DNA of 64,000 bases from NCBI RefSeq assembly GCF_044324785.1, contig NZ_CP172127.1; one strand, written 5' to 3'. This DNA comes from Escherichia coli. GTDB lineage: Bacteria > Pseudomonadota > Gammaproteobacteria > Enterobacterales > Enterobacteriaceae. This document shows positions 20,391-20,402 of this stretch, one piece after another (positions within the stretch are counted from its first letter, which is position 1; every line of letters begins with the position of its first letter). The notes under the pieces are model-generated. The model searched no databases and was not told the origin of the DNA. It saw only the letters and a program-made list of their open reading frames with translations. The translations under genes were made by a program, and so were the position numbers.

Positions 20391-20402
20391 CACGCTACCG
20401 CC
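20391..20402 (-). promoter_or_regulatory. ops element (GGCGGTAGCGTG) for RfaH-dependent antitermination, upstream of wzm
   Basis: Plus strand CACGCTACCGCC at 20391-20402 is the exact reverse complement of the 12-nt ops consensus; about 300 nt upstream of wzm on the coding strand. Confidence 0.65.

Follow-up and report, generated by a model that had tools for sequence, protein, structure and literature searches.

An exact ops element imported with a mobile D-galactan operon in Escherichia coli, and its probable use by host RfaH

How might a long, foreign, AT-rich polysaccharide operon come to be transcribed to its end in a new host? The question is raised by a 64,000-nucleotide (nt) stretch of Escherichia coli DNA (contig NZ_CP172127.1 of assembly GCF_044324785.1; 'the window' below), in which a D-galactan O-antigen operon of Klebsiella O2a type lies in a genomic island and is preceded by a 12-nt sequence identical to ops, the element at which RfaH is recruited. 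That JUMPstart and ops elements stand ahead of O-antigen and capsule clusters is textbook knowledge. RNA polymerase pauses at ops, which is exposed on the non-template strand, and RfaH binds, excludes NusG and stays through the transcription unit, where it suppresses pausing and Rho- and H-NS-dependent termination and recruits ribosomes; a long AT-rich operon is its typical target. Is the 12-mer of this island such an element, and where did it come from? The answer we consider well supported is that it is a functional ops, set in a diverged JUMPstart within the approximately 850-nt untranslated leader of a mobile operon that would be transcribed from an upstream promoter and depend on RfaH. 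The element and its immediate context are as follows.

20391-20402, minus strand: ops element, the exact 12-mer GGCGGTAGCGTG, the single exact match in the window.
20391-20427, minus strand: diverged JUMPstart, Klebsiella/Raoultella variant (Rfam RF01707).
20420 to 20416 (TTGGT) and 20408 to 20404 (GCCAA), minus strand: arms of a 5-bp stem, followed by ops (covariation test).

All 12 nt agree with the ops sequence GGCGGTAGnnTG, and the one exact occurrence compares with a chance expectation of 0.03 per window, both strands considered (3/100 dinucleotide shuffles). The element and all seven open reading frames (ORFs) of the operon are on the minus strand, so that ops is on the coding, and thus non-template, strand of a leftward operon, just as the original prediction had it. 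The prediction had also placed it about 300 nt upstream of wzm, the first gene, which is borne out: from the last ops base (20391) to the first ATG of the wzm ORF (20093) there are 297 nt, or 309 nt if the RefSeq start of wzm (20081) is used. The site is in untranslated leader, with no coding sequence annotated there in RefSeq copies. Of 26 loci fetched from other genera, 22 have ops or near-ops ahead of their wzm relatives, 46 nt to about 1.9 kb away. The sole near-match elsewhere in the window, GGCGGTAGCGTT at 56673-56684 on the plus strand, has one mismatch and falls within ybjP, a core lipoprotein gene, towards the 3′ end. It was dismissed as a chance occurrence, since RfaH is not expected to load at an intragenic site: in CFT073 it loads only at leader, non-template ops sites, 34 of 42 ops-like sites being non-functional and intragenic (PMC9765446).

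Is it just an ops, or does the surrounding sequence also have the features of a JUMPstart? Alignment of the flanks to JUMPstart, a check proposed along with the prediction, yields a match to RF01707 from end to end (model positions 1-38 of 38; 25.6 bits, E 0.011), though under the gathering score of that family. The 3′ half of the JUMPstart is ops itself and is perfect, the divergence being in the 5′ half with GGTTGC for GGTAGC and ATGGCGG for GGGGCGG. Copies from Raoultella planticola, Klebsiella grimontii and Serratia plymuthica are likewise under the Rfam threshold, while those from Rahnella, Tatumella, Enterobacter, Pantoea, Enterobacillus and a Raoultella metagenome-assembled genome pass it. 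In an alignment of 23 JUMPstart segments (22 distinct sequences), most of them from upstream of wzm relatives, the cells of the 5-bp stem are paired in 97.2% versus 88.4% in shuffles and 19-57% with the partner slid, and changes on both sides are present at two of the five pairs (UA/CG at pair 1, UA/AU at pair 2). Judged by this alignment, the stem is the known JUMPstart hairpin in its Klebsiella/Raoultella variant form. The best-conserved stretch of the leader is JUMPstart/ops, of which the island and Klebsiella pneumoniae share 36 identical nt although the leader around them is unalignable, a clear sequence signature of purifying selection on the ops element. What the JUMPstart precedes is a polysaccharide cluster, with wzm-wzt-wbbM-glf and glycosyltransferase genes downstream. 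Neither an E-value scan of 19000-22000 nor a gathering-score scan of the whole window against Rfam found another RNA family in the leader, whose limits are these.

20094-21021, minus strand: non-coding leader of 928 nt, promoter region plus long 5′ untranslated region; Raoultella homology starts at 21021.
21022-21455, minus strand: insertion sequence (IS) remnant, a pseudogenised DDE transposase adjoining the upstream edge of the leader (RefSeq pseudogene, window 21030-21455).

Was ops acquired from the host's own repertoire, or did it arrive with its operon? The wzm protein is 100% identical to that of R. planticola and of R. ornithinolytica, and the window from 21021 to 15317 is 99.4% identical to positions 3073-8777 of the fetched R. 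ornithinolytica locus, that is over all 5.7 kb fetched. The homology begins exactly at 21021, where the IS remnant adjoins the leader. In Raoultella the order is ugd, a divergent NAD-dependent epimerase gene, a 1.36-kb intergenic region and wzm; as the upstream gene is divergent, the operon promoter must lie in that intergenic region, of which the island keeps the wzm-proximal 928 nt. As the 99.4% identity covers leader and operon alike, starting at 21021, the cassette brought ops with it, and by this comparison ops, JUMPstart and the entire 928-nt leader are an import, along with the operon, from a Raoultella-like donor. R. ornithinolytica NBRC 105727, whose chromosomal wzm locus is the one so similar, whole leader included, probably represents the donor lineage, though unlike the island it has 437 nt more of the intergenic region, and then the divergent epimerase gene, upstream, where the island has its IS remnant. 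The original prediction spoke of an acquired locus wired into host RfaH antitermination; the sequence features needed for that are present, but the signal was imported and not wired in after acquisition.

From where, then, would transcription reach ops? Six leaders were compared, those of the island, R. ornithinolytica, R. planticola, K. grimontii, K. michiganensis and K. pneumoniae, and two features upstream of ops emerged.

20956-20984, minus strand: candidate sigma-70 promoter TTTTTA-17-TATAAT, with its -10 at 20961 to 20956, about 550 nt upstream of ops.
20668-20684, minus strand: conserved 17-nt leader block TGAGAAAGTCCTGATGG, about 270-280 nt upstream of ops.

Across Raoultella, the K. 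oxytoca complex and K. pneumoniae the leader is mostly unalignable, but four blocks persist in constant order, namely TTTTATTC-N14-TATAAT, the 17-nt block, JUMPstart/ops and the wzm start. The block farthest upstream (window 20983 to 20956) is 351-553 nt upstream of ops with identical internal spacing in all six leaders, and the last, GTAGAATAATTTATGAGTATAAA at the wzm start, is 239-365 nt downstream of ops. TTTTTA-17-TATAAT is the top-scoring promoter candidate in the leader. However, consensus scans were dropped as a guide to the start site, as the best candidate is no better than those in shuffled sequence, and for that reason the start was placed by phylogenetic footprinting. On conservation and not on consensus score, the promoter is most likely upstream of ops at the TATAAT block. 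The 17-nt block, with consensus (A/T)TGAGAAA(G/T)TCCTGAT(A/G)G and a chance expectation of 0.01 per window, is 173-282 nt upstream of ops in the six leaders and in the plasmid and island copies, and was not found in the other fetched loci, including the Serratia, Pantoea and E. coli O8 leaders; from this distribution it appears specific to Klebsiella/Raoultella galactan operons and could be an undescribed regulatory site. It can also be read as a mini-ORF of four codons, ATG AGA AAG TCC TGA. Its likeness to an RcsAB box amounts to only about 8 of 14 positions, and no such identity is claimed for it. No ORF in the leader is conserved among the compared relatives. One of 61 codons at 20140-20325, with an AAGGA resembling a Shine-Dalgarno sequence, was entertained as a leader peptide and rejected, having a frameshift from a 2-nt indel in R. 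planticola and being absent in Klebsiella. Terminator-like sites in the leader and within the operon do not exceed chance, which leaves no particular terminator to single out as the target of RfaH.

Is RfaH available, and does it act on such an operon? Of 5426 complete E. coli genomes, 5425 have rfaH, whose locus is outside the window. The K. pneumoniae rfb leader carries the identical JUMPstart/ops, and in K. pneumoniae NTUH-K2044 an rfaH deletion brings wzt down by 68.5% and glf, farther along the operon, by 89.5%, which is the polarity to be expected, with reduced lipopolysaccharide (PMC11448354). RfaH dependence in the island host is an extrapolation from this orthologue and from the known mechanism of RfaH, while for this island we infer both the promoter position and the pause at ops. 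Transcription would start at the conserved promoter about 550 nt upstream of ops (-10 at 20961 to 20956); RNA polymerase would reach ops and pause with ops displayed on the non-template strand; host RfaH would bind, with NusG excluded, and would stay on the polymerase, suppressing pausing and Rho- or H-NS-dependent premature termination over the approximately 8 kb of AT-rich operon. It would probably also aid ribosome loading on wzm, ahead of whose two candidate ATGs direct reading of the sequence reveals no clear Shine-Dalgarno sequence. The predicted antitermination by RfaH thus draws support, by inference, from the exact non-template ops, the universality of rfaH and the RfaH-dependent orthologue; what it had not anticipated is that no local rewiring of the locus took place.

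How far has this leader travelled? Among the 5426 complete E. coli genomes, 45 have the full-length leader and 53 have this wzm. Leader and operon are also found, at 99.1-99.8% identity, on plasmids of Citrobacter portucalensis, Enterobacter asburiae, Enterobacter kobei and E. coli. At least the C. portucalensis plasmid pSTW0522-27-3, a conjugative IncFII plasmid, has the same left boundary as the island (21021), and the common boundary suggests a single capture followed by spread. At a second type of junction, IS5 is at window 20494, with the candidate promoter lost and JUMPstart/ops kept; such leaders, cut 92 nt upstream of ops, are on plasmids of C. freundii (pCF_324-5), Enterobacter roggenkampii and several E. 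coli. The wzm-wbbO cassette and its ops leader are, in all, carried on conjugative and mobilizable plasmids of Citrobacter, Enterobacter and E. coli. A further break, at window position ~20347, is in the chromosomes of E. coli TUM1881, BY63, BY68 and I3; TUM1881, the only one inspected, has an IS21-family element at ~20973-20986, in the candidate -35 region, and between ops and wzm an IS903B with a 9-bp duplication at 20347-20355. Through all this, ops is retained in 53/53 E. coli genomes and 10/10 plasmids with this wzm. Separately, the E. coli IncFIB plasmid pESBL3311 has, at 5001-5046, a JUMPstart of the Klebsiella-type variant (46 nt, 97.8% identical) which precedes another O-antigen cluster, IS26-flanked, with rfbBADC and an ABC transporter; from such sequences mobile ABC-type O-antigen clusters seem to carry their own JUMPstart along.

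The operon served by this leader consists of the following genes and is ended by an IS.

19314-20093, minus strand: wzm, O-antigen ABC transporter permease, the first gene (ORF, RefSeq).
18574-19314, minus strand: wzt, ABC transporter ATP-binding subunit (in RefSeq rfbB, O-antigen export ATP-binding protein).
16667-18559, minus strand: wbbM-like, a DUF4422 plus GT8 glycosyltransferase of 630 amino acids (domain match, RefSeq).
15494-16648, minus strand: glf, UDP-galactopyranose mutase (TIGR00031, 321 bits, above the cutoff of 303.75).
14607-15497, minus strand: wbbN-like GT2 glycosyltransferase (named by gene order).
13461-14606, minus strand: wbbO-like GT4 glycosyltransferase (domain match, RefSeq).
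12179-13339, minus strand: GT2 glycosyltransferase with its C-terminus truncated by IS903 (plasmid comparison).
11153-12209, minus strand: IS903-type element terminating the operon (IS903B in RefSeq; IS5-family transposase).

The six core genes, wzm to wbbO, are all intact ORFs, and the operon of ~8 kb has a G+C content of 0.39-0.44 versus ~0.50-0.55 in neighbouring non-operon sequence. The truncated GT2 gene encodes 386 amino acids versus 413 in the C. portucalensis plasmid copy, homology stopping at window 12210. An NCBIfam 'galactan export' identity for wzm and wzt was rejected, the scores being far under the cutoffs of what are mycobacterial models, and so the names of these two genes rest on gene order, RefSeq names and literature. 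For the wbbN-like gene the basis is the gene order of the Klebsiella rfb(O2a) cluster (PMC10629545).

That the locus is island-borne, as had been stated, is evident from its position between serW (a tRNA-Ser gene ~420 nt past the left end of the window) and clpA, beside an integrase gene and many IS copies; the island also has a CP4-like module (Ag43, YeeU/CbtA, antirestriction) and hsdM. ARAGORN finds no tRNA gene within the window, the serW attachment site being just outside. From 11153 to 32259 the window and E. coli SMS-3-5 (O19:H34) are 99.99% identical, against only 98.7% in the core flank (ybjD-clpA, 32379-41879); by these identities the island is common to distinct E. coli lineages, via recent horizontal spread or recombination. 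At the 11152/11153 junction (IS903/hsdM) an approximately 9-kb segment of SMS-3-5 (30549-39533 of the fetched locus) is missing from the window; in SMS-3-5 it has copies of IS3, ISKpn26, IS256 and IS1 together with wbbZ and wbbY, and other listed E. coli genomes also have an extra ~9-10 kb in the region of the hsdM/IS903 junction. With the wbbY/wbbZ segment missing, the strain would make at most D-galactan I (O2a-like) and not the O1-like D-galactan II cap. At the boundary of island and clpA a 54-nt direct repeat on the plus strand (32200-32253 and 32379-32432, 94% identical, 179 nt apart), which holds a hairpin and then a T-run and is single-copy in SMS-3-5, may be a duplication of an attachment site or of a terminator. 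An IS102 RNA (RF00124, 71.6 bits) is at 8269-8505 on the minus strand, beside an Ag43-type autotransporter ORF (5404-8325).

What tells against a functional ops reached from an upstream promoter? The 25.6 bits of the JUMPstart are below the Rfam gathering score of 35. The candidate promoter scores 10.5 when the median best score in shuffles is 10.6, the DNA beyond about -60 of it has been swapped for the IS remnant, and a weaker candidate, TTGTTC-16-TACAAT at 20368 to 20341 with a score of 9.1, is downstream of ops. The 297 nt from ops to ATG exceed the distances of wzx, kps and rfa in CFT073 (40-67 nt), though being shorter than that of hly (~600 nt; PMC9765446). Finally, retention of ops in rearranged copies amounts to two or three independent rearrangements plus very recent spread (99-100% identity), which is weak evidence for selection. 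Might ops then be an intact passenger that idles, transcription starting downstream of it or from an IS-derived promoter, so that RfaH is never loaded? The downstream candidate is just beyond ops and scores only slightly less than the upstream one, the native upstream region is cut by the IS remnant at 21021, and TUM1881, with one IS between ops and wzm and another in the candidate promoter, is an example of a broken leader being tolerated (BY63, BY68 and I3 share its break at ~20347). However, K. grimontii, K. michiganensis and K. pneumoniae share the upstream TATAAT and ops but not the downstream candidate, the core promoter candidate with ~60 bp upstream of its -10 is kept in the window, and the K. 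pneumoniae orthologue depends on RfaH; we regard an idling ops as improbable.

A different objection concerns the cassette as a whole, which could be silent or decaying in this strain, with ops still there just because transfer was too recent for decay. IS remnants on the flanks, the GT2 gene truncated by IS903 and the absent wbbY/wbbZ segment are in keeping with that, and copies 99-100% identical have given selection little time. Yet all six core genes are intact, E. coli O19 reacts with Klebsiella O1 antibodies and makes D-galactan II, which implies expression (PMC4237132, PMC10629545), and E. coli K-12 hosts express the cluster from its own DNA, as DH5alpha does with pWQ288 (PMC10629545), so that a silent cassette too is unlikely. 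As for the 12-mer being a chance match without function, ops-like sites certainly do arise by chance within genes, the ybjP site and the 34 non-functional CFT073 sites being examples, but the low expectation per window, the position in a leader on the correct strand within a full-length JUMPstart match, and the invariance among orthologous leaders that are otherwise unalignable effectively refute it. A functional ops used by RfaH is the reading retained. There is also the more ambitious proposal that selection maintains the ops leader as an integral component of a mobile D-galactan cassette, captured once from a Raoultella-like chromosome and moving among E. coli, Citrobacter and Enterobacter by conjugative plasmids and the serW island, with ops serving as a portable 'expression passport' by which recipients would immediately display a second, Klebsiella-type O antigen, given that RfaH is conserved in all these hosts; this we put forward tentatively, as a possibility short of an even chance.

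How does the island compare with systems already studied? Bailey et al. in 1997 reportedly dealt with the ops/JUMPstart leaders of the E. coli RfaH regulon, and Artsimovitch and Landick in 2002 with the mechanism of RfaH recruitment at ops. In that regulon (rfb/wzx, waaQ/rfa, kps, hly), the ops/JUMPstart leaders of which were treated by Hustmyer et al. in 2022 (PMC9765446), an identical non-template 12-nt ops is likewise in an untranslated 5′ leader, and the operons are similarly long, AT-rich, horizontally acquired and envelope-related with one ops per transcription unit; unlike there, ops on the island is farther from the start than in all but hly, the 5′ half of the JUMPstart is diverged and binding by RfaH is a prediction. 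The rfb locus (wzm-wbbO) of K. pneumoniae O1/O2 shares gene order, the 36-nt JUMPstart/ops, the promoter-like block and the extra conserved block, but wzm is only ~80% identical in DNA, the remaining leader is unalignable, ops is 239 nt from the ATG rather than 297, and its place is in the chromosome between ugd/uge and his rather than in an island. The JUMPstart of E. coli O8/O9-type rfb (manC-manB-wzm-wzt), also ahead of an ABC-transporter-dependent O-antigen operon, is of the Klebsiella-type variant and ~95% identical over 42 nt, though the last two positions of its ops are TA and not TG (GGCGGTAGCGTA) and it belongs to a native his-linked locus, ~70 nt from manC. The ops elements of F-plasmid tra and of hly plasmids and islands are comparable in that a cis element on mobile DNA uses a conserved chromosomal host factor, so as to be expressed in whatever enterobacterial host it enters; there the cargo is conjugation or toxin functions, in contrast to the O-antigen cluster of the island, which is on conjugative plasmids as well.

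The arrangement is thus an instance of a textbook mechanism with nothing unexpected in it; modestly new are the portable leader of an O-antigen cassette borne by plasmids and an island, and the conserved block at 20668-20684. No paper was found on ops in the leader of this island, and a literature search on wbbM and galactan in E. coli genomic islands gave nothing. SMS-3-5 (O19) was tied to Klebsiella O1 by Hsieh et al. in 2014 through wbbY/wbbZ that are 99% identical (PMC4237132). Kelly et al. in 2023 state that wbbYZ are often present in E. coli isolates, close to a complete rfb(O2a) cluster that is not at the his locus and in one case is plasmid-borne, and that such isolates may produce two O antigens together (PMC10629545).

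What does this mean for E. coli? With a cis signal that accompanies its cargo and a universal trans factor, an AT-rich O-antigen operon of foreign origin would be expressible from end to end without local rewiring. Isolates bearing the cassette may co-express a Klebsiella O2a/O1-like antigen beside their own O antigen (PMC10629545, PMC4237132), and such co-expression bears on serotyping, on phage susceptibility and on vaccines or antibodies directed at Klebsiella O antigens. A prediction follows, that inhibition of RfaH would remove both O antigens at once.
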